A stretch of 42,310 nucleotides of DNA from a virus. Taxonomy: Duplodnaviria; Heunggongvirae; Uroviricota; Caudoviricetes. Location: the IMG/VR virus record IMGVR_UViG_643692022_000008; one strand, written 5' to 3'. How positions within the stretch are numbered: position 1 is the stretch's first letter; every line of letters begins with the position of its first letter. Shown piece by piece: positions 908-40,942 of this stretch. Both the position numbers and the translations under genes were made by a program. The notes beneath the pieces were generated by a model. The model had not been told where the DNA came from. It searched no databases and saw nothing but the letters and a program-made list of their open reading frames with translations.

Positions 908-1492
908 TTATTCCATGACAGGGATTACCGGCCACTCAACATCAGGTGCAGTTGATGTATCAACACGGTTCAGCAACACCCGATACTTTTTCCAGGCTTC
1001 CAGCAATGAGGTTTCTACCTCCGTTGCGATCTCAAGATCTACCGCATCCTGAAGTGGCGCAATATTCTCACTGGCTACCCGCATTAGGCTGTTTTTTGTT
1101 TCTTCCGCCTCCCGTATCCGAAACAGTTTTTCTGCTTCTGCATCTTTCACCCAAATTATGCCGTTCCACTTCTGATATTCCCCATCCGGCGACAACCAGG
1201 TGACATTTTCCGGTAACGGGCCGAGTTCAGAAATAAATAACGCGTCCCCTGATGCCACGTCATAGACCGTTTTTTCCCTGTGGTCTTCAACGAGATGCCA
1301 TGATGTATCCTCACTGTTAAAAACAGCCACGAAGCCAGCCGGAATATCTGGCGGTGCAATATCGGTACTATTTGCAGGCAGACCTGTATGAGGGGGAATG
1401 TATGCATCACCTTCACCAATAAATTCATTGGTTCCGGCCAGCAGATTATAAATTTTTATAGTCCGTGGTTGTTCACTCATTCTGAATGCCAT
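908..1492 (-). CDS. Tail fiber assembly protein (Tfa/gpG-like)
   Basis: 194-aa ORF immediately downstream of the tail fiber gene; start overlaps the fiber stop; sequence resembles enterobacterial phage Tfa chaperones. Confidence 0.8.
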
Positions 1493-21542: not shown

Positions 21543-22036
21543 TGCTGACCCCACAAACAGATTTCACGCTCAATCTCACGACGAGTCATGAGACCTTTCC
21601 ATTGCTTACCGCCAGCGTATGTCCAGCGCCGTAGCTGATCACATGCGCCTTTGATATCACCCTGGTTTATTTTGCGAAGAAGCGTCGATGTTCTGAAATT
21701 GCCAGCACCCACGTTGTAGACGAACGAGTAAAGAGCGCCGCGCGTTGTTTCCGGTATATCGACTTTGATGTACGGGTTAATTTGTCTGGCGACAGTGGCA
21801 AGGTCTTTATTCAGGAGGGCTTTGCATTCTGCTTCGGTATACGTTTTACCGAGCATAATGTCTTTTCCGGTGTGTCCGTAACATACAGTCCATACACCAA
21901 CTATGTCTTTGTAAGGATTATGTCTCACACCTTCCAGACCATCGTTACCACTTGGGCCAGTGATTAACACAGATGCTATAGCAATAGCCCCGCCACCAAT
22001 AGCAGCAGCAACAGCTTTTCGTAATGATGGAGGCAT
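21539..22036 (-). CDS. R: SAR endolysin (phage 21 R-type lysozyme)
   Basis: N-terminal SAR segment ([20 protein letters not shown]) plus lysozyme domain; near-identical to R21 as I remember it. Confidence 0.9.
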
Positions 22037-22251
22037 TATTCACCTCTCGCAGCCTTGCGCTTATCTTCTTTAATCTTGAAATAAAGGTTTGTCAGGTACG
22101 TCAGCAGGCCAAATACCAAGCTACCCAGCACACCTATTGCTGCCCACTGTGAGGGCGTGACTTTATCGAGCAGCTGTAAAAACCAGTAGCCAGCACTGCC
22201 TGCGGAGGTGCCGTAGGCAATGCCCGTTGTTAACTTATCCATGGATTTCAT
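22036..22251 (-). CDS. S: Pinholin (phage 21 S-type)
   Basis: 71-aa protein [26 protein letters not shown]... with two TM segments, overlapping the endolysin start. Confidence 0.9.
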
Positions 22252-22345
22252 AGCCTCACCTCCGCAAATAACGGATGGTGTACACGGTTCGGAACGAAGA
22301 GGAAAGGTATAGAAGTTACATTAGCGTAAGGCTTGAACATCTATT

Positions 22346-22378
22346 CAAAAAGAAAAACGCCAGCGATTATTCTGGCGT
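22346..22378 (-). terminator. Rho-independent terminator downstream of the AraC-family gene
   Basis: Hairpin acgccag/cgattatt/ctggcgt (22357-22378) followed on the minus strand by a U-run (plus-strand aaaaagaaaaa 22346-22356). Confidence 0.6.
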
Positions 22379-22439
22379 AGCTGAAAGCATCATACAATTA
22401 TCAAATACGAAAATTACAAAATCATTAAAACGCATCACG

Positions 22440-23180
22440 TTACATCATGTCTTTTTCTAAAAAAAATCTTGATGAATATTGATGGGGAGGAACACCAAAA
22501 TATCTTCTGAAAACACTTACAAAATATGACGTGTTTTCATAACCGCATATCTCAGCAACTTTTCCAACAGAATATAAATTGTAGCTTAATAACCTTTCCG
22601 CCATCACCATTCGCTCTTCAAGAATTAACTTACTAAATGATAAGCCTTCGTGCTTTAATTTTCTTTTTAACAGACTTTCACTCAGATACAGTCTTGAAGA
22701 TATATCACAAAGTCTCCATGCTGCAGATATATCCGTGTGAATAATAGCCTTAACTTTACTTCCTAAACTATTAAGACATCCAAATAAAAAACTTTGCACT
22801 ATTTTCTCTGAAGATAAGATAGCAAGACATGCAAGTGATATTTGATTTCTAACAAAATCTACAGTTCTGCCATCACAATTCAAGCATGCAATCAAGTTCT
22901 TTAACAATGAAAAATCTTCACATTCCACCATCAAGTATGCCGGATAAAACCTTCTTACAGAAAAAGGTGAGAGTGTGTTGCTTTTAAAGAAATCATTAAC
23001 TGTTTTCTCTTCAACATCTACGATCATTACATGATCTATATTTGATGAAAAAAAATCTTTTAAATTGTAATCAATGAGAACAGCACTTCCCTTTTTAAAC
23101 AAAATATCTTCTTTACCAATTCGGGCATCAAACGAGTTCAACACCAAAATGATAGAACATATGTATGGCATATTATCCAC
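22440..23180 (-). CDS. AraC/XylS-family transcriptional regulator (AT-rich cargo gene)
   Basis: 246-aa ORF with C-terminal AraC-type HTH (VGKVAEICGYENTSYFVSVFRRYFGVPPHQY); very AT-rich gene and 340-bp AT-rich upstream region. Confidence 0.8.
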   Translation of the reverse strand: MDNMPYICSIILVLNSFDARIGKEDILFKKGSAVLIDYNLKDFFSSNIDHVMIVDVEEKTVNDFFKSNTLSPFSVRRFYPAYLMVECEDFSLLKNLIACLNCDGRTVDFVRNQISLACLAILSSEKIVQSFLFGCLNSLGSKVKAIIHTDISAAWRLCDISSRLYLSESLLKRKLKHEGLSFSKLILEERMVMAERLLSYNLYSVGKVAEICGYENTSYFVSVFRRYFGVPPHQYSSRFFLEKDMM

Positions 23181-23520
23181 CTGATATCATTGAGGTTACA
23201 CCAGGTAAGTATAGGTGGAAAATCAATATTCGCCAGTTCAACAATAAGGAAAATCTCATTGCATCACAAGTATAAAATTATGTATTTAACTCACAAAGAC
23301 AAATTATTAAACCAATCTGTTATATTATATATAGCTGCGTGGAATCATAATATTATATTTTGACTGGCATGTTTACCAACTTTAAGTTGCATCTCAATGG
23401 TTTCTTCAGCGTAAACAGAGTTTTTATACAAACTGACACTCTGGGTATCATAGTGTAGTTTTTACGATTGTAAATATCCTGCATGCAGGAACTCATCCTT
23501 TTGGATGATATCGCATACAA

Positions 23521-24480
23521 TTAATTTACCATCAGTCTTAGAGCCAGTTCGTCCGGATAGGGATCGAAGTAATTCTGTGTAAGCAAGTAATCATTAGGAT
23601 ACTCACCCAGATAATGCTTCAGCAGAGTCAACGGCGCAAGAAGAGGTAATGTGCCAGAACGATAGTTAAGTATAACCTCGCTCAACTCTTTACGCTGGCG
23701 TGTACTTAAGTAGTTACTAAAATACCCCTGTATATGCATCAGCACATTCGTGTGATTTTTACGTGATGCAGGTTTTCTGAGAATCGCCATCAGCTTATCA
23801 CGATACACCTCAAAGTATGATTCAAGGTCCGCCCACTCGTGTATTGCAGCCACAAATGGTCCCATATCTTTATAGCCTGCCTGACTATGCGCCAACAACT
23901 GAAGCTTATAACGACTATGAAAAGCTAATAACTCTCTTCTTGATAATTTCTCCTTGTAAAGGTGATTGAGCTCATGCAAAGCAAAAACTCTTTCAACAAA
24001 ATTCTCACGAAGCACTGGATCATGTAATCGCCCATCCTCTTCAACCGGTAGCCAGGAAAACTTTTCCATCAAAGTGCTCGTAAATAGTCCCACTCCATCT
24101 TTACGACCTCGATTACCATTTTCATCATAGACACGCACGCGCTCCATGCCACAGCTGGGAGATTTAGCACAAACCACAAACCCCGATACATCCTTTAATT
24201 TGTCCATATAAGAACGACTAAACTCTGTCATTCTCTCTGTCACATCCTCATTCTGGTCGTGGCTGAAACACATCCGTATATTTCCTTGCGTCGAGCGCAC
24301 AAGACGTAGAGCAGGACGCGGAACTGGCAGCCCTATAGCCATTTCTGGACATACTGGTCTGAATGTTACCCATTCCACTAATTTGTCCATTAAAAAGTCA
24401 GCTCTTTTGTGACCACCATCAAAACGAACAGCAGAACCGGCCAAACAACCGCTGATTCCAATCACAGGTTTTTTTATCAT
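23521..24480 (-). CDS. DUF523 + DUF1722 (YbgA-like) protein, possible Fe-S desulfidase-type enzyme
   Basis: 319-aa ORF; N-terminal Cys-rich region (GISGCLAGS, PVCPEM, CAKSPSCGME) and YbgA-like C-terminal half. Confidence 0.65.
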   Translation of the reverse strand: MIKKPVIGISGCLAGSAVRFDGGHKRADFLMDKLVEWVTFRPVCPEMAIGLPVPRPALRLVRSTQGNIRMCFSHDQNEDVTERMTEFSRSYMDKLKDVSGFVVCAKSPSCGMERVRVYDENGNRGRKDGVGLFTSTLMEKFSWLPVEEDGRLHDPVLRENFVERVFALHELNHLYKEKLSRRELLAFHSRYKLQLLAHSQAGYKDMGPFVAAIHEWADLESYFEVYRDKLMAILRKPASRKNHTNVLMHIQGYFSNYLSTRQRKELSEVILNYRSGTLPLLAPLTLLKHYLGEYPNDYLLTQNYFDPYPDELALRLMVN

Positions 24481-24672: not shown

Positions 24673-25197
24673 ATGAAGTTATGGCCTGTGTTGACTGGCA
24701 TTGCACTCTCTTTCACTCTTATAGCATGTAAGGCCCCGACACCACCTAAAGGTGTGCAGCCGATTACAAATTTTGACGCCAACCGCTACCTCGGAAAATG
24801 GTATGAAATAGCTCGCCTCGAGAACCGGTTCGAACGTGGTCTGGAACAGGTCAGCGCTACTTATGGAAAACGGAACGACGGAGGGATTCGTGTACTTAAC
24901 CGTGGATACGATCCAACGAAAAATAAATGGAGCGAGAGCGAAGGTAAAGCATACTTTACTGGAGATACTAAAACTGCAGCGTTGAAGGTTTCGTTTTTTG
25001 GCCCCTTCTATGGTGGCTATAATGTAATCAAACTGGATGATGAGTATAAGTATGCTCTTGTCAGTGGTCCGAACAGAGAATACCTATGGATTCTGGCAAG
25101 GACCCCAACTATTCCAGATAAAGTAAAAGCAGACTATGTGCGAACCGCTCAAAAGTTGGGATTCAATGTCAATGAATTATTATGGGTTAAACAATAA
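24673..25197 (+). CDS. blc: Outer-membrane lipoprotein Blc (bacterial lipocalin)
   Basis: Lipobox LIAC; NFDANRYLGKWYEIARLENRFERGLEQVSATY and KVSFFGPFYGGYNVIKLD match E. coli Blc motifs. Confidence 0.85.
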   Translation: MKLWPVLTGIALSFTLIACKAPTPPKGVQPITNFDANRYLGKWYEIARLENRFERGLEQVSATYGKRNDGGIRVLNRGYDPTKNKWSESEGKAYFTGDTKTAALKVSFFGPFYGGYNVIKLDDEYKYALVSGPNREYLWILARTPTIPDKVKADYVRTAQKLGFNVNELLWVKQ

Positions 25198-25224
25198 AAT
25201 CCCTACTCGAAATAATACTTATTA

Positions 25225-25251
25225 GAAAAAACCAGCCTTTGGAGAGGCTGG
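25225..25251 (-). terminator. Rho-independent terminator on the minus strand downstream of Q (tR'-like)
   Basis: Hairpin ccagcct/ttggag/aggctgg (25232-25251) followed on the minus strand by UUUUUU (plus aaaaaa 25225-25230), ~100 nt downstream of the Q stop. Confidence 0.6.
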
Positions 25252-25351
25252 CTAAATCAGGAAACAAGCTGTTATATGATAATAACTACGTTGCGATTCC
25301 AACATTTAAAATGTTAGACTAATGACAATCAGACAGCAACTTTTCCTTTAA

Positions 25352-25744
25352 TTATTTCGAACAATCAGCATCCATCTCCAATCGGAGATCCAACACCATC
25401 AGCATACCCTCCACTACGCCCTCAGCTTTCTGGAGCATCCTGCCAACCCAACAATCAGATCGCCCATGCTTACGTGCAAGCGCCATAAAAGTCATGCCGC
25501 CGACATAATAGTCCACCAATAAATCATGCAAATCGCTGTTGTTCTTTTTCAGACGGGCCATGCACCCGCAAATGATCATCGCGTCATCGTCACAACATTG
25601 TGGGCGAGATTTTACTTTTGAAGGAATTAATCCCTTAAAACCGGCGGCAATGGACGACCAGGTCACATCTTCATGATTATTAGCCGCCCACGCTCCCCAA
25701 CGCTCAAGAACCATCTGAATATCACGCATCAACTTACTCCACAA
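25352..25744 (-). CDS. Q: Late antiterminator Q (QuuD-like)
   Basis: [22 protein letters not shown]... Cys-rich Q-family protein; lies between rusA and the lysis region as in DLP12. True start may be the internal ATG (MRDIQ). Confidence 0.8.
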
Positions 25745-30840: not shown

Positions 30841-31856
30841 AAATCCACCCCGTAAATCCAGTCAGTGTTCGTCAGGTCGAGTTTTGGTTTGCCGGCTGTC
30901 ACGCCAGCCTGTTGCTTGTTTCGGTTGATTTCGAGCTGGGTCCACTTGTCGCGGAGTTTGGCCGGACTCAGCACGTTACCGGACCAGAAGTTGTCCTGGC
31001 ATGCCCAGCGGAACAGTACACACATATCGCGGTGGTTACGCCCGTCACGCTCACGCATCAGGCGGATATCGTTAGCCCACCCTGCAAAATTCGGTTTTCT
31101 GGCTGATGGCGCGATGGTCTTCACCATGTCAAACATCCACTCTGCGGCGGTCAGGTCTTCTGCTGTCCCCCACTTGCTGCCGCTCTGAATCGCAGCATCC
31201 GGTTTCACCACAGGAAGGTCGTTTTCTGGCTGGTCAGAGTATTCGCCAGAATTCTCGGACGAATAAGGTTTTATATTGTCTTTTGTTAGTTTGTCTTTTG
31301 TGTTTACCTGATTCGGGTAAGTGCCTTTACCTGATTTGGGTAAACTTTTCTTACCTGATTCAGGTAAATTTACCTCTTTCAGGTAAACTTTATTTTTCTT
31401 ACCTGATTCGGGTAATGTTGACCATTCACTGACCACATTATTAATGCCTATATTCCGCCCGCTCTGAATAAAAATCCCACGCTTTACCAGAACACTTTTT
31501 GCAGCAGAACACTTGTGCGGCAATATCCCGGTCAACTCGGAAAGTTGCTCGTTGCTCACCCAATCCAGTTTTTTATTAAAGCCATATGTTTTGCGCATGA
31601 CAGCCAGGAAGACCAGAAGCTGGTGCTGTGTTAATCCGGCCAGCATTACAGCTTCCAGCAACTCATTTGCAATGCGCGTATAACCATCATCGAGATCTGC
31701 CACGCGCGGCTCCTTTTGTGCCGCATCCGGCACAGGAAAATTGAATATCTCAGCAGTGTTTGCCATAATTCCTCCCGCAATGAGTGTGTTACGATTTGCA
31801 CCTGAAAGTCGGTTCTGTTCCCGCAGACCGACTTTCGCCATTTTTAAACCTGTCAT
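30837..31856 (-). CDS. O: Replication initiator O (lambda O-like C-terminus, distinct N-terminal DNA-binding domain)
   Basis: 339-aa ORF overlapping P; contains the iteron array and AT-rich tract internally; C-terminal region resembles lambda O. Confidence 0.9.
   Translation of the reverse strand: MTGLKMAKVGLREQNRLSGANRNTLIAGGIMANTAEIFNFPVPDAAQKEPRVADLDDGYTRIANELLEAVMLAGLTQHQLLVFLAVMRKTYGFNKKLDWVSNEQLSELTGILPHKCSAAKSVLVKRGIFIQSGRNIGINNVVSEWSTLPESGKKNKVYLKEVNLPESGKKSLPKSGKGTYPNQVNTKDKLTKDNIKPYSSENSGEYSDQPENDLPVVKPDAAIQSGSKWGTAEDLTAAEWMFDMVKTIAPSARKPNFAGWANDIRLMRERDGRNHRDMCVLFRWACQDNFWSGNVLSPAKLRDKWTQLEINRNKQQAGVTAGKPKLDLTNTDWIYGVDL
31304..31415. repeat. Replication origin iterons inside the O gene
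   Basis: Five ~17-bp copies of TTACCTGATTCGGGTAA-like repeats at 31304-31320, 31327-31343, 31351-31367, 31369-31386 and 31399-31415, followed in the direction of O transcription by an AT-rich tract (31261-31300). Confidence 0.85.
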
Positions 31857-32398
31857 ATTGCCCCCAACATGGTGGTAACCATCGCCATCAATGGACCAGC
31901 CAGATCCGGGTCCACACGAAACATCGACACAATACCTTCACTCATCTCCTTCAGTTTCTGGTGGCGTGGTGCGTTGAGAATGACAGCCTGTTTTGCCTCA
32001 CTGAGTTCCTTTTCCATTTCAGCCAACCGAGTCATGAAGCTATCCTGCTCAACCAGGTAACCGCGATATTCCAGCGGTAGTACCGCCAGAATTGCCGGGG
32101 TCAGTTCACGCACGTTATTTCGGTATTTTTCAGAATCGAATTTGTTATCGAGGAAGCGGAACAGCTTCTGGCGTGCACGGCTGACATCATCAGGGAAATC
32201 GATGGTGCCGCCGCCCTGCTCCCGATACTCATTCACAATGAGTGCGGCAACAACATCCTGATTATCTGCAGCCGACCAGGCGCGGACGGCATCACGGATT
32301 TTTTCGTGGCCTGGCACCTGTTTTGTTTGAGAACGATTTATCACCGCAGTCGGGCTAAATCCGCTAGTCTGTTGGTATGTAAGTGGTTGCATAGTCAT
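31853..32398 (-). CDS. YdaT-like protein (cII-position regulator/toxin-like)
   Basis: 181-aa ORF between the cro-like gene and O; EYREQGGG...ELTPAILAVLP resembles Rac YdaT as remembered. Confidence 0.5.
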   Translation of the reverse strand: MTMQPLTYQQTSGFSPTAVINRSQTKQVPGHEKIRDAVRAWSAADNQDVVAALIVNEYREQGGGTIDFPDDVSRARQKLFRFLDNKFDSEKYRNNVRELTPAILAVLPLEYRGYLVEQDSFMTRLAEMEKELSEAKQAVILNAPRHQKLKEMSEGIVSMFRVDPDLAGPLMAMVTTMLGAI

Positions 32399-32760: not shown

Positions 32761-33453
32761 ATGAAAAAAGAAACTCTTGCTGATCGCTTAAATCTAGCGA
32801 TGGAACAATCTGGAATGTCTCAAGGCGCTCTTGCAAAGGCGTCTGGCGTAGCTCAACCCACAATCTGGAGACTGACAAGCGGCAACGCGCGCGGCTCAAC
32901 AAAAATTGTTGAAATAGCTAATGCATTGGGTGTTCGAACAGAATGGCTCTCTTCAGGCATAGGCCCGATGAGAAATGACGGTCAACAATCAGGGAAGCCT
33001 GCTGTCAGCCATTCCAAATACTTCAAAATTGACGTTCTTGATATAGAAGTCAGTGCCGGGCCGGGTGTAATCAACCGTGAGTTTGTAGAAGTTCTACGCT
33101 CGGTTGAATACTCGTTTGACGATGCTCGTCACATGTTCGATGGCAGGAAGGCGGAAAATATCCGCATCATTAACGTGCGTGGTGACAGCATGTCAGGAAC
33201 GATCGAACCAGGTGATCTGCTGTTCGTTGATATCACGGTTAAATCTTTCGACGGTGATGGTATCTATGCGTTTCTGTATGACGACACCGCCCATGTAAAA
33301 CGCCTGCAAATGATGAAGGATAAGCTGCTGGTTATCTCTGATAACAAGAGCTACTCACCGTGGGACCCGATCGAGAAAGACGAGATGAACCGCGTGTTCA
33401 TCTTCGGGAAAGTCATCGGGAGCATGCCGCAGACATATAGAAAGCATGGGTAG
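32761..33453 (+). CDS. cI: CI-type repressor (HTH-XRE + S24 LexA-like peptidase domain)
   Basis: N-terminal HTH (QGALAKASGVAQPTIWRL) and C-terminal S24 domain (GDSMSGTIEPGDLLFVD...KRL); start at ATG 32761. Confidence 0.85.
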   Translation: MKKETLADRLNLAMEQSGMSQGALAKASGVAQPTIWRLTSGNARGSTKIVEIANALGVRTEWLSSGIGPMRNDGQQSGKPAVSHSKYFKIDVLDIEVSAGPGVINREFVEVLRSVEYSFDDARHMFDGRKAENIRIINVRGDSMSGTIEPGDLLFVDITVKSFDGDGIYAFLYDDTAHVKRLQMMKDKLLVISDNKSYSPWDPIEKDEMNRVFIFGKVIGSMPQTYRKHG

Positions 33454-33582
33454 AAATCAGAACAAAATTATGCACTTCGCTTTTCAGCTTACTGTAGTAA
33501 GGCAATAAATTAGGCTTGACGTTAGCTATCAGGTGCACAACAATAATTGTTGAATAATAGGTTTTTTTAACTAGGTGATAAC

Positions 33583-34722
33583 ATGGCAGCGGTTGAATTT
33601 CAATTGTCTAGGAAGATGATTGATTGGATAGCAAATTCTCAAGGAGTTTCTATCGAAACTCTTGCTGACCAAGTCATGCCCAAAAAGATTAATAAATTTC
33701 TTAACGGAGTGGTAAGTAAATCCGCAGCAGAAAAACTGGCAAAAATTGGAGGAATCCCTTTCGGTTTTTTATTTCTTGAAACGCCACCAACTCCAGCCAA
33801 ACCCAAGATCCCTGACTTAAGGCAAGCTATAAATAGCCGTGAGTTAGGAAAAGATTTTTTTGATGTTTACTATGATATAGAATATAAACTTGAGTGGTAC
33901 AAAGACTATTTAAGAGAAAATGGTAATGATGATCCACTCGATTTTATTGGTAAATTTAAATTTAATAGAAAATTAAATTATAAGGTTGTTGCTACAGACA
34001 TAGCAAACACAATACATTTTGATATACAAAAAGAGATAAAAAATGTCACTTTTGAGAGCTATTTTTCTAAAGTGGCAAAACTAATAGAAGACACTGGCGT
34101 ATTAGTTTTCAAGAATGGTGTTGTGGGTAATAATAATAAAAGAAAACTTGACACGCGAGAGTTTCGTGGTTTCTGTATATCTGATAGCGTTGCTCCGATC
34201 ATTTTTGTAAATAGCTCGGACGCGTTATCTGCGCAGGTATTTACATTATTTCATGAGGTGGCTCATCTTTGGCTTGGAGTCGATGGAGTCTCTGGGTGGG
34301 ACACAGAAAAAAACATAGAATCTTTTTGTAATAAAGTTGCTGCTGAAATCTTAATGCCTGATAATCTCTTCAAATCTTTCTGGCTTAATGCATCCAGCGA
34401 TAATAATTATTATCGAGTAAAAGAGGTTTCTAAGTTATTTAAGGTTAGTGATTTCGCTTGTGCAATCAAAGCGTTACAATTAGATTTGATAGAAAGAAAC
34501 ACTTTGGAGATAATTAAAGATCAAGCTTACAATAAGCCCAAAAAAGAATCCAATGGTGGTTCTTTCTTTAACACATTACCTGTTCGTAACAGTCCAAAAC
34601 TTACGAATATAATAATTTCCAAAGCAATGTCTCAACAATTACCATTAAGGGAAGCAGGCGTACTGCTAAATGTAAAAGCAGATACAGTTGTTGAATTTTA
34701 TAAAAAACGAGAATCTCTATGA
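33583..34722 (+). CDS. HTH + ImmA/IrrE-family (DUF955/COG2856-like) HEXXH metallopeptidase
   Basis: 379-aa AT-rich ORF with AGGTGA RBS; N-terminal XRE-like HTH; HEVAH motif at 34251-34265; stop overlaps the next gene's start (ATGA at 34719-34722). Confidence 0.7.
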   Translation: MAAVEFQLSRKMIDWIANSQGVSIETLADQVMPKKINKFLNGVVSKSAAEKLAKIGGIPFGFLFLETPPTPAKPKIPDLRQAINSRELGKDFFDVYYDIEYKLEWYKDYLRENGNDDPLDFIGKFKFNRKLNYKVVATDIANTIHFDIQKEIKNVTFESYFSKVAKLIEDTGVLVFKNGVVGNNNKRKLDTREFRGFCISDSVAPIIFVNSSDALSAQVFTLFHEVAHLWLGVDGVSGWDTEKNIESFCNKVAAEILMPDNLFKSFWLNASSDNNYYRVKEVSKLFKVSDFACAIKALQLDLIERNTLEIIKDQAYNKPKKESNGGSFFNTLPVRNSPKLTNIIISKAMSQQLPLREAGVLLNVKADTVVEFYKKRESL

Positions 34723-35231
34723 TTCATAATGGAAAATTCTTAATTGATAGTAATGTCTTCATAGAGGCAAAAAACTTTGCATATAACTTCAATTATTGCA
34801 AAATATTTTGGGATTTTCTTCTCGCTTTACACATTAAAGGTCTGATTTATAGCATTAATGCTGTAAAAAAAGAACTATGTGCAAAAGATGATCCATTGTG
34901 TAAATGGATTAAAGAAGAGTTACCATCATCATTCTTCGAAGATGAGCATAGTTCAATAGAAAATTATGCAAAGTTAATAAATTGGTCAACTAAATTAGAT
35001 GTTACCGAAAAGGCAAAGTTTGATTTTGCAAGCCATGAAAAAGCAGATGCTTTTTTAATAGCCCATGCGATGACACATGGATATACTATTATTACCCATG
35101 AGAAACCATCCGGTGGCAAACCTAAAAAAAGAATAATGATCCCGGATGCTGCTGCTTCTCACGGCGTTAAGACATTAACACTATATGAATTTCTTCCAAG
35201 ATACGCTAGTCATAATTTTTCTTTGAAATAA
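34719..35231 (+). CDS. DUF4411 PIN-like putative nuclease
   Basis: 170-aa AT-rich ORF translationally coupled to the upstream peptidase; N-terminal FLIDSNVFIEA strand with conserved Asp typical of PIN-like folds. Confidence 0.65.
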   Translation: MIHNGKFLIDSNVFIEAKNFAYNFNYCKIFWDFLLALHIKGLIYSINAVKKELCAKDDPLCKWIKEELPSSFFEDEHSSIENYAKLINWSTKLDVTEKAKFDFASHEKADAFLIAHAMTHGYTIITHEKPSGGKPKKRIMIPDAAASHGVKTLTLYEFLPRYASHNFSLK

Positions 35232-35236
35232 AACGT

Positions 35237-35263
35237 CCCGGCCACCGTGCCGGGTTTTCTTTT
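35237..35263 (+). terminator. Rho-independent terminator after the two-gene module (tIMM-like)
   Basis: Hairpin cccggc/caccgt/gccggg (35237-35254) followed by ttttctttt. Confidence 0.7.
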
Positions 35264-35379
35264 GCCTCCCCTCATCACACACACCATTCAAAAAACCACC
35301 ACAACCCCGCTTCAGTTATCGCTATGCGATGCAAGTCACAAAATTAATTCTTTTTGCTATCAAATATTTAATATCAAAA

Positions 35380-35432
35380 CACATCTAGCAATAGCAATAA
35401 GTATTGATATCATCAATAGCAATAGCTATTAT
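35380..35432 (+). promoter_or_regulatory. OL-like operators with candidate pL promoter
   Basis: CAATAGCAA(T) motifs at 35386-35397 and 35414-35426 match the OR motif; TTGATA (35404-35409), 17-bp spacer, TATTAT (35427-35432) on the + strand facing gam-bet-exo. Confidence 0.55.
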
Positions 35433-35625
35433 CACCATGTCGCAACAACACAACGATACGGCAATCACCTGATTCACCGTTGCGATGACCGCTTAGATCC
35501 GCAGCTTGAATTTCAGCAGGCTCCGGGGAGTGCGAGGGGTGAAGCGGACGCGTGAACGTCGGTGTGACCAGCTGAAATCAACTCAACACTTCATACCTCA
35601 GTCGCTTCAACGAGGCGGCTTAGTT

Positions 35626-39467: not shown

Positions 39468-39815
39468 GTGGAAGAAGAAATCTTCACTCGTGAAGAGGCT
39501 GCGTCGTATCTGAAGGTAGACAAAGGCACTATCACGCAGTGGATACGAAGTGGACGACTTCAAGCCGCAAAGATAAATCCAGATAAACCTAAAAGCCCAT
39601 ATCGCATTTGCAAGTCAGACTGCATTGCGGCGCTTAAGTCTGTGAGACACAATAGCGCGGTGAATGCGGTTGATGTGCAGGAGGTTAAAGCATGTCAATC
39701 AAACTGCGCGGTGGCACATGGCACTGCGATTTCGTCGCGCCAGATGGATCAAGAGTTAGACGCTCTCTTGAAACATCGGACAAAAGGCAAGCGCAAGAAC
39801 TTCACGATCGTCTGA
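39468..39815 (+). CDS. xis: Excisionase-like HTH protein (Xis)
   Basis: Probable GTG start at 39468 with GGAG RBS; HTH (TREEAASYLKVDKGTITQWIRSGRL); overlaps the integrase start, as xis and int overlap in lambda. The exact stop is uncertain. Confidence 0.6.
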   Translation: MEEEIFTREEAASYLKVDKGTITQWIRSGRLQAAKINPDKPKSPYRICKSDCIAALKSVRHNSAVNAVDVQEVKACQSNCAVAHGTAISSRQMDQELDALLKHRTKGKRKNFTIV

Positions 39816-40852
39816 AAGCAGAAGCGTGGAGAGTAAAAAATCTCGGGGAATCACCGAAAAAGCTATTCAAGGAAGCCTGCATACGGTGGCTGCGTGAGAA
39901 ATCGGATAAGAAGTCCATTGATGATGACAAGAGCATTATATCGTTCTGGATGTTGCACTTCAGAGAAACCATTCTCTCTGACATAACAACAGAAAAAATA
40001 ATGGAGGCGGTAGACGGGATGGAAAACCGCCGCCATCGCCTGAACTGGGAGATGAGCCGGGACAGGTGTTTGCGGCTTGGCAAGCCAGTGCCGGAGTATA
40101 AACCAAAGCTGGCAAGCAAAGGAACGAAGACGCGGCATCTGGCAATACTTCGCGCTATTCTCAATATGGCTGTTGAATGGGGATGGCTTGACAGGGCGCC
40201 CAAAATATCAACACCACGCGTTAAGAATGGACGAATCAGATGGCTTACAGAGGAGGAATCGAAGCGCCTGTTTGCAGAAATTGCTCCTCATTTCTTCCCT
40301 GTGGTCATGTTTGCAATCACGACAGGCCTTCGTCGTTCCAACGTTACAGACCTTGAGTGGTCACAGGTCGATCTGGATAAGAAAATGGCATGGATGCACC
40401 CTGATGAAACAAAAGCTGGCAATGCGATCGGAGTTCCTCTTAACGAAACCGCATGCCAGATATTAAGAAAACAGCAGGGGCTCCATAAGAGATGGGTATT
40501 TGTCCACACCAAACCTGCCTACCGAAGCGACGGAACAAAAACAGCAGCGGTAAGGAAGATGAGAACCGACAGCAACAAGGCATGGAAGGGAGCGTTAAAG
40601 CGGGCAGGCATTAGCAACTTCCGCTTCCATGACCTGAGGCATACCTGGGCAAGCTGGCTGGTTCAGTCCGGTGTCTCTCTTCTTGCACTTAAAGAGATGG
40701 GAGGATGGGAAACTCTCGAAATGGTTCAAAGATACGCCCACCTTTCAGCTGGGCATCTCACCGAGCACGCGAGCAAAATCGATGCGATTATAAGTCGCAA
40801 TGGCACAAATACGGCACAGGAGGAGAACGTAGTTTACTTAAATGCGAGGTAA
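39692..40852 (+). CDS. int: Tyrosine site-specific integrase
   Basis: 386-aa ORF ending 14 bp before the tRNA 3' end; C-terminal catalytic region [10 protein letters not shown]...RYAHL. Confidence 0.92.
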   Translation: MSIKLRGGTWHCDFVAPDGSRVRRSLETSDKRQAQELHDRLKAEAWRVKNLGESPKKLFKEACIRWLREKSDKKSIDDDKSIISFWMLHFRETILSDITTEKIMEAVDGMENRRHRLNWEMSRDRCLRLGKPVPEYKPKLASKGTKTRHLAILRAILNMAVEWGWLDRAPKISTPRVKNGRIRWLTEEESKRLFAEIAPHFFPVVMFAITTGLRRSNVTDLEWSQVDLDKKMAWMHPDETKAGNAIGVPLNETACQILRKQQGLHKRWVFVHTKPAYRSDGTKTAAVRKMRTDSNKAWKGALKRAGISNFRFHDLRHTWASWLVQSGVSLLALKEMGGWETLEMVQRYAHLSAGHLTEHASKIDAIISRNGTNTAQEENVVYLNAR

Positions 40853-40866
40853 CTTATTGATTTAGA

Positions 40867-40942
40867 TGGTGCCGATAATAGGAGTCGAACCTACGACCTT
40901 CGCATTACGAATGCGCTGCTCTACCAACTGAGCTATATCGGC
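40867..40942 (-). tRNA. thrW: tRNA-Thr (anticodon CGU), thrW-like; 3' 46 nt form the att core
   Basis: Reverse complement reads GCCGATATAGCTCAGTTGGTAGAGCAGCGCATTCGTAATGCGAAGGTCGTAGGTTCGACTCCTATTATCGGCACCA: cloverleaf with CGT anticodon and encoded CCA. Confidence 0.95.

Follow-up and report, generated by a model that had tools for sequence, protein, structure and literature searches.

A prophage-borne AraC/XylS-family regulator of the PatE/PsrA-B/AppY/YdeO branch in the Q-S cargo slot of a lambdoid prophage

The regulator gene and its expression signals

The stretch of DNA analysed here (IMG/VR record IMGVR_UViG_643692022_000008; 42,310 nt, hereafter the window) is a lambdoid prophage, and on its minus strand, between the genes for the antiterminator Q and the holin S, it carries a gene for an AraC/XylS-family transcriptional regulator (22440-23171). 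The open reading frame (ORF) as called (22440-23180, minus strand) matches the Pfam models HTH_18 (54.9 bits against a cut-off of 33.6; E = 1.1e-14) and HTH_AraC (44.1 bits against a cut-off of 26.6; E = 2.1e-11). An earlier reading of this DNA, made from the letters alone (the sequence-only reading), had described the product as an AraC-type protein of 246 amino acids. The family assignment stands, with both Pfam domains present, but the length does not: the protein has 243 residues and starts at the ATG at 23171, because the GTG at 23180 that would open the longer product falls within the Shine-Dalgarno sequence (cAGGTGGataatATG), the RefSeq annotation (WP_001146305.1) agrees, and the ATG is kept in all alleles compared (56-83% protein identity). 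The ribosome-binding site (23172-23182, minus strand) consists of AGGTGG at 23182-23177 and a 5-nt spacer ahead of this ATG, and four alleles spanning the same range of protein identity have in common CAGGTGG, a short spacer and the ATG.

The gene is among the most AT-rich of the window, as had been noted earlier. At 31.8% G+C it lies below the window's 50.0%; 1.2% of 732-bp segments are equally AT-rich, and the sole comparably AT-rich block lies at 33292-35524. The base composition of the regulator gene is thus foreign to that of the surrounding phage genes. The gene also has its own intrinsic terminator, found where it had been predicted (22347-22378, minus strand). It takes the form ACGCCAG-loop-CTGGCGT, a 7-bp stem with five GC pairs (22378-22357) followed by the T-run TTTTTCTTTTT, and its predicted folding energy is -11.3 kcal/mol (z = -2.25). 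Insertion sequences have landed on either side of the gene: in strain 1506 an IS1A lies between the regulator and the holin, at the equivalent of approximately 22260-22440, and in strain a7 an independent IS1A insertion interrupts the AT-rich upstream gap, at the equivalent of approximately 23300-23500. Additionally, strain ECNB21-M121 has an IS1A where its prophage remnant ends, right after the lysis genes and adjoining betA.

Upstream, the roughly 340-bp AT-rich intergenic region described in the sequence-only reading is present (23181-23520; 32.4% G+C, a value as low being found in 3% of 340-bp segments), but its description as a long leader is not supported. A predicted -10 element (23206-23214, minus strand) sits 36 nt before the ATG, in the sigma-S-like extended form C-TATACT-TA (CTATACTTA, at 23214-23206), which matches the extended -10 consensus favoured by sigma-S. 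Its TATACTT core is invariant in the window, in phage 1H12, in two further loci (L009 and L010), in Sakai PatE and in mEp332, while the flanks diverge (C, G or A before TATACT; A or C after TATACTT); PsrA carries CTATAAT at the same position. Moreover, CTATACTTAC is kept 35-36 nt from the ATG in 76 of the 80 closely related IMG/VR loci. Together with a weak -35-like TGGCGA (23235-23230, minus strand), this element would place the transcription start near 23201 and give a 5' untranslated region (5'-UTR) of about 30 nt; both its promoter activity and its dependence on sigma-S are predictions from sequence. Because this conserved -10 lies so close to the ATG, the gap is probably not a leader, and what remains of it is fast-diverging upstream DNA.

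This remaining part (23215-23520, minus strand; approximately 32% G+C) is weakly conserved between alleles: identity to the 1H12 allele drops to 43-60% at 23250-23450, and family-wide conservation is limited to the last ~85 bp before the ATG. It is a candidate regulatory or silencing region. The gap (23181-23520) contains small ORFs only (55 and 57 amino acids), without support. A hidden RNA element in the gap was considered and rejected, as there was no Rfam match at gathering or E-value thresholds and the folding was ordinary (z = -2.4 for the gap and about -0.5 for the predicted 5'-UTR). Pairing of the ribosome-binding site with an anti-Shine-Dalgarno sequence (CCACCT/AGGTGG) was likewise discarded, since its conservation stops at the closest alleles. 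Silencing by H-NS is possible, as suggested by the AT-richness and by analogy with appY (PMC10057817) and psrA (PMC13502914).

Family membership, selection and a frameshift-prone tract

Judged by its sequence, the regulator is intact, as yet uncharacterised, and belongs within the AraC/XylS family to a class already known, the PatE/PsrA-B/AppY/YdeO branch. The 243-residue frame is complete across both domains, a beta-rich N-terminal domain (approximately residues 1-130) and a C-terminal double helix-turn-helix DNA-binding domain (approximately residues 136-235), and it aligns colinearly from end to end with eight relatives. Full-length identity amounts to 52-53% with PatE, 39% with PsrA (48% over the C-terminal 159 residues), 31% with AppY and 31% with YdeO. 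Across the PatE/Psr/AppY/YdeO clade the recognition helices hardly vary, and residues M1, C5 and S6 do not vary at all; the recognition helix of the first helix-turn-helix (SESLLKRKLK) is the same as in PatE and differs from that of YdeO at one position. The top NCBIfam model is YdeO (E = 1.4e-37, residues 1-236), but with 129.6 bits the match falls far short of the 348 that the equivalog cut-off demands, and the regulator is therefore not a YdeO orthologue. It also matches phrog_1450 (5e-106). The regulator falls in the same clade as the prophage AraC-like regulators to which the sequence-only reading alluded, PatE, PsrA and AppY among them.

Structure prediction is in line with this assignment. 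The AlphaFold (AF2) model has a mean predicted local distance difference test score (pLDDT) of 75.8, with a beta-rich N-terminal domain (pLDDT approximately 50-84) and a seven-helix C-terminal domain. The modelled DNA-binding domain superimposes on that of GadX (3mkl), the best solved structure (40% identity), with a root-mean-square deviation (rmsd) of 1.6 A and a template modelling (TM) score of 0.91. The top full-length Foldseek matches are Rns, CsvR and ToxT (E = 1e-10), at a TM score of only 0.42, an rmsd of about 15 A and an identity of 17-20%. Rns and ToxT represent a class of AraC virulence regulators that respond to fatty acids through a pocket in a cupin-like N-terminal domain.

The gene is under purifying selection. 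In comparisons between alleles, whose synonymous sites are saturated, the ratio of nonsynonymous to synonymous substitution rates (dN/dS) came to 0.15-0.26 for the whole gene, with values of 0.08-0.17 for the DNA-binding half and 0.15-0.31 for the N-terminal half. Since the window copy is full-length colinear and complete in both domains, and given these ratios, it is read as an intact, selected gene. The sequence-only reading had named a truncated or inactive pseudogene as the outcome that would undo its proposal; what the alignment returned is an intact frame, colinear throughout and 98.8% identical to the gene of the phage IdasGreatGrand.

In some lineages the gene is nevertheless broken. 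Codons 39-42 contain a T8 homopolymer (23048-23055, minus strand) that is a recurrent +1/-1 frameshift site; the window copy has T8 and is in frame. Eight of the 80 IMG/VR loci are disrupted, all of them at this tract (seven T7 and one T9), although some slips in draft genomes could be sequencing errors, and the slips fall on at least five local haplotypes. Among 534 complete genomes with the allele segment, 242 have exact T8 and 232 exact T7, and RefSeq labels one T7 copy 'frameshifted'. In other allele groups the T tract is interrupted, for which reason an evolved phase-variation switch was judged unlikely. We read the T8 tract as a mutational weak spot and a sign of dispensability in some lineages rather than as a designed switch. 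A second T8 homopolymer of the gene, at 22459-22466 (minus strand) in the disordered C-terminal tail, could be behind the length variants of 241 and 248 residues seen among viral contigs.

These disruptions bear on the explanation that the regulator is a silent or decaying passenger, xenogeneically silenced, of no value to the host and hitch-hiking in a popular Q-S cassette. Frameshifts on at least five haplotypes, the T7 form in 232 of 534 complete genomes and the strong AT-richness of the gene are what such a passenger would be expected to show, and so are the IS1 insertions beside the gene and the case of H67, in which rudS and blc are kept under the match and an IS1B is present, with no regulator annotated there. 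However, the T7 genomes include many that look clonal, their chromosome sizes and coordinates being similar, and against a decaying gene stand the dN/dS values, lower still in the DNA-binding domain, a ribosome-binding site and a -10 element kept across alleles of 56-83% identity, independent capture behind three families of Q and an intact frame in viable phages (see below). A mere passenger is thus an improbable reading of this gene.

Prophage setting and mobility of the cassette

The prophage occupies tRNA-Thr(CGT) thrW, adjoining proA, with its integrase gene at 39692-40852. The thrW attachment site lies at 40867-40942; the same site is used by Sakai Sp1/CP-933H, at whose far end a PatE-type paralogue is found. 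The late genes of the window prophage run on the minus strand. The upstream border of the slot in which the regulator lies is a phage 21-type antiterminator Q (25352-25744, minus strand; PF06530, 2.5e-51). Just 3' of Q is an intrinsic terminator (25224-25253, minus strand) with a 9-bp stem and a T-run (predicted -15.6 kcal/mol for 25253-25230, z = -3.99), which from its position would play the role of tR'. The segment from the Q stop codon to this terminator (25224-25350, minus strand) would give a PR'-tR' transcript of ~100 nt in lysogens, an RNA of the same class as the small RNA StxS of Shiga toxin (Stx) phages (PMC13502914); in Rfam, 25224-25350 returned a single sub-threshold match (RF02278, 27.5 bits where 50 are required).

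Three cargo genes follow. The first, at 24673-25197 on the plus strand, encodes a Blc-type outer-membrane lipocalin (NCBIfam Blc, 316 bits, above the cut-off) and is oriented against the late operon, so that Q-dependent late transcription would run antisense through it. The second (23521-24480, minus strand) was identified by domain search as a TudS+DUF1722 fusion ('YbgA family') of 319 residues. Its product shares 93% identity with phage 1H12 gp66, which is the RudS_vir protein tested in a paper on RudS tRNA 4-thiouridine desulfidases (PMC11417400); this neighbour, orthologous to RudS_vir, is an enzyme for tRNA de-modification carried by a phage. The third gene is the regulator, which a gap of 349 bp separates from the TudS+DUF1722 gene. 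The downstream border is an S21-type holin (22036-22251, minus strand; PF04971, 2.2e-35), after which come, in order, endolysin, Rz, bor and terminase. With Q, the tR'-like terminator and the holin all on the minus strand, the location assigned to the regulator in the sequence-only reading, on the path of the late transcript between Q and the lysis genes, is correct.

The limits of the cargo can be traced by comparison with the K-12 prophage DLP12, to which homology breaks within the 3' end of Q, at 25370, and returns 11 nt short of the ATG of the holin, at 22262. In DLP12 the corresponding slot, likewise between the 3' end of Q and the holin, holds nmpC, and the spread-sampled records that keep both Q and S but not this cassette likewise have a porin gene (nmpC/ompC-like) there; REL606 carries the porin variant. 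The regulator resembles known Q-S cargo and other morons (stx in Stx phages, nmpC in DLP12, bor/lom in lambda) in being autonomous, of deviant composition and equipped with its own terminator. Unlike stx or nmpC, however, which encode a toxin and a porin, the gene in the window encodes a transcription factor, and it travels with rudS_vir and blc.

The cassette is widespread. Of 5426 complete E. coli genomes, 1087 have a match to a 1.3-kb region and 979 contain the cassette in full, from Q to S; carriers span commensal, clinical, animal and environmental isolates. A scan of species-representative genomes gave three matches, but it relies on exact peptide words and says little about taxonomic spread. 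One of the three, a 3.2-kb contig binned in a Candidatus Nanosynbacter metagenome-assembled genome (JARKOR010000151.1), encodes the regulator at 98% identity; almost certainly this is DNA of an E. coli phage that was mis-binned. The cassette is also present in viable phages, namely IdasGreatGrand and the 1H12/Lambda_ev group, the latter with a regulator of 82.7% identity. The structural genes of the window resemble those of a myovirus, Citrobacter phage Chris1, from which it follows that the cassette crosses phage backbones.

The constancy of the cassette could suggest a local regulator, dedicated to its rudS-like and blc-like companions or to the downstream holin and lysis genes. Indeed, 68 of the 80 IMG/VR loci keep the full Q-blc-rudS-araC-holin order, and the junction sequence to the S21-type holin is common to four alleles (those of the window, 1H12, L009 and L010). 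More distant alleles tell otherwise. Those with 64% and 56% identity are flanked directly by a Q protein from another family (PF03589 and PF06323, respectively) on the upstream side and by an S21-type holin on the downstream side, and at their loci the lipocalin and TudS-DUF1722 genes are absent, for which reason a dedicated regulator of rudS and blc was rejected. The PatE-type alleles (Sakai, mEp332) and appY are found at the tail-fibre end of the prophage, distant from any holin, and in the window the terminator of the regulator divides it from S. A role confined to the neighbouring cargo or to lysis is accordingly the least credible of the explanations considered. In L010 the terminator hairpin, too, accompanies the allele of 56% identity. 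Since the unit recurs behind three Q families without its present neighbours, the promoter region (~85 bp, the promoter itself being predicted), the gene and the terminator together are a classic independent moron.

Elsewhere in the window, a second and still more AT-rich island (33292-35524, plus strand; minimum ~30% G+C) lies just downstream of an S24-type repressor gene. It encodes a 379-residue M78/ImmA-like peptidase with weak RmrA/CapP-like matches in PADLOC and a 170-residue DUF4411 protein, and, lying where lambda has rexAB, may be a moron for defence or a toxin-antitoxin system. In the early region beside the repressor gene, an ORF at 31853-32398 (minus strand) contains a YdaT_toxin domain (PF06254, 4.9e-30), and in the tail-fibre assembly region Rfam matches the IS009 small RNA at 951-1149 (minus strand; 210.8 bits).

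A possible role in the GadE/hdeAB circuit

The closest characterised relative of the regulator, at 52-53% identity over the full length, is PatE (Z0321/ECs_0287) of the O157:H7 prophage CP-933H (Sp1). The biology of PatE and of PsrA/B is taken here from reviews, and ECs_0287 is equated with PatE/Z0321 as the sole AraC-type gene in Sp1/CP-933H. The two genes share their AT-richness (patE has 35% G+C), the predicted TATACTT core promoter and a prophage at thrW, and expression of patE is 6-fold RpoS-dependent (PMC2907692). Unlike the window gene, patE lies at the tail-fibre/attachment end of its prophage rather than between Q and S, and the N-terminal domains of the two proteins are strongly diverged. 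Another example is PsrA/PsrB (ECs_1087, Z1789/Z2104; Sp4/CP-933N, OI-57), which are also prophage-borne and AraC-like, psrA lying just downstream of Q on the late-operon path. PsrA and PsrB induce gadE and yhiF and thereby repress type III secretion and the enterocyte effacement locus (LEE) (PMC10877973), and psrA rises when Hha is repressed, that is, upon relief of Hha/H-NS silencing (PMC13502914). Their neighbours are different (a CAAX protease, tRNA genes and pchA), and they are confined to LEE-positive pathotypes, whereas the window regulator occurs in ~20% of complete E. coli genomes.

AppY, encoded in K-12 by a prophage of the same lambdoid family (DLP12), is a further AraC-family relative with a colinear alignment (31% identity). 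Its activation of gadE is direct, and RpoS and H-NS both take part in its own expression (PMC10057817). It differs in its location, at the prophage end beside ompT, and in being without the conserved TATACTT promoter block. YdeO, the best NCBIfam model despite its sub-cut-off score, and GadX are chromosomal core regulators of the circuit, while the window regulator is phage-borne. Despite these differences, activation of gadE and/or hdeAB is common to PatE, PsrB, AppY and YdeO (PMC10877973; PMC10057817), with PatE and PsrB acting at hdeA and gadE (PMC10877973).

Because the characterised members of this clade all feed the acid-fitness island, a role in the GadE/hdeAB circuit is proposed for the window regulator as well. 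By analogy with these relatives, we hold it slightly more probable than not that the gene is a moron-borne, intact activator with its own sigma-S-type promoter that feeds the GadE/hdeAB acid-resistance circuit. In a lysogen entering stationary phase or under stress, the gene would be transcribed from this promoter (-10 at 23214-23206), perhaps while H-NS/Hha act to silence the AT-rich DNA. With its pair of helix-turn-helix motifs, the protein would then, like its relatives, bind AT-rich sites at acid-fitness island promoters (gadE, hdeAB), and the activation of gadE and hdeAB would raise glutamate-dependent acid resistance; in LEE-positive hosts, type III secretion might be indirectly damped. 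After induction, Q-modified RNA polymerase would pass both terminators and transcribe the regulator within the late operon as well, since the gene lies between tR' and S.

Several observations weigh against this proposal. Identity to characterised relatives is just 31-53%, and the N-terminal domain is the faster-evolving one. The targets could also differ, given that the AppY, YdeO and PatE regulons overlap yet are not identical. The sigma-S-type promoter is predicted from a motif; a generic sigma-70 promoter scan of the region gave 13 matches against 11.1 expected in shuffled sequence, and from promoter scanning only the phylogenetically conserved -10 was retained. As to silencing, the high-affinity H-NS motif TCGATAAATT has no match with up to two mismatches across 22440-23520 (gene and gap), a scan that is uninformative either way, its window-wide count being at chance level. 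Approximately 43% of the complete genomes with the allele are frameshifted, which argues that the regulator is dispensable in many lineages, although this figure is inflated because many T7 genomes resemble one over-sampled clone. Finally, literature searches on the accession or on the blc/ybgA/AraC cassette returned nothing specific to the regulator.

The first of these points is also what would favour a functional AraC activator whose main targets lie elsewhere, for instance in the hydrogenase/acid phosphatase operons (as for AppY), in adhesins or in motility or biofilm genes. AppY is pleiotropic beyond the glutamate-dependent acid-resistance system AR2 (PMC10057817), and PatE affects LEE genes too (PMC10877973), both of which are compatible with such a regulon. 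However, the characterised members of the clade (PatE, PsrA/B, AppY, YdeO and GadX) all converge on gadE and/or hdeAB, and the near-invariance of the recognition helices across the clade counts against it as well. A regulon centred elsewhere is thus unlikely, if the foremost competitor of the acid-resistance proposal.

A bolder variant would endow the regulator with two control modes, a Q-dependent burst of a global host regulator on induction and an ON/OFF switch by slipped-strand mispairing at the T8 tract. The premise of the burst is that the unit always lies right behind Q/tR'. If true, the burst, analogous to Stx release, would lead those cells in which the prophage is induced to reset their regulons for acid resistance and virulence, and the switch would subject a global regulator borne by a prophage to phase variation. 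Other allele groups do not have the T8 tract, which argues for a mutational liability over a designed switch, and the combination as a whole is very unlikely.

Prophage AraC-like regulators are an established phage route into the acid-resistance and virulence circuitry of E. coli, of which only PatE, PsrA/B and AppY have been studied. Even if true, the GadE/hdeAB proposal would leave concepts unaltered, the regulator being ordinary rather than surprising. Its interest lies in its frequency, as the allele group of the window is far commoner than the members specific to enterohemorrhagic E. coli (EHEC), being present in about 1 in 5 complete E. coli genomes, and in the material that nature provides: intact (T8) and frameshifted (T7) variants, together with the RudS_vir cassette, lend themselves to comparisons of acid survival and of stationary-phase physiology. 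If either were found to change, non-EHEC E. coli would have in this regulator a common accessory determinant of their stress tolerance, which would be a useful finding.

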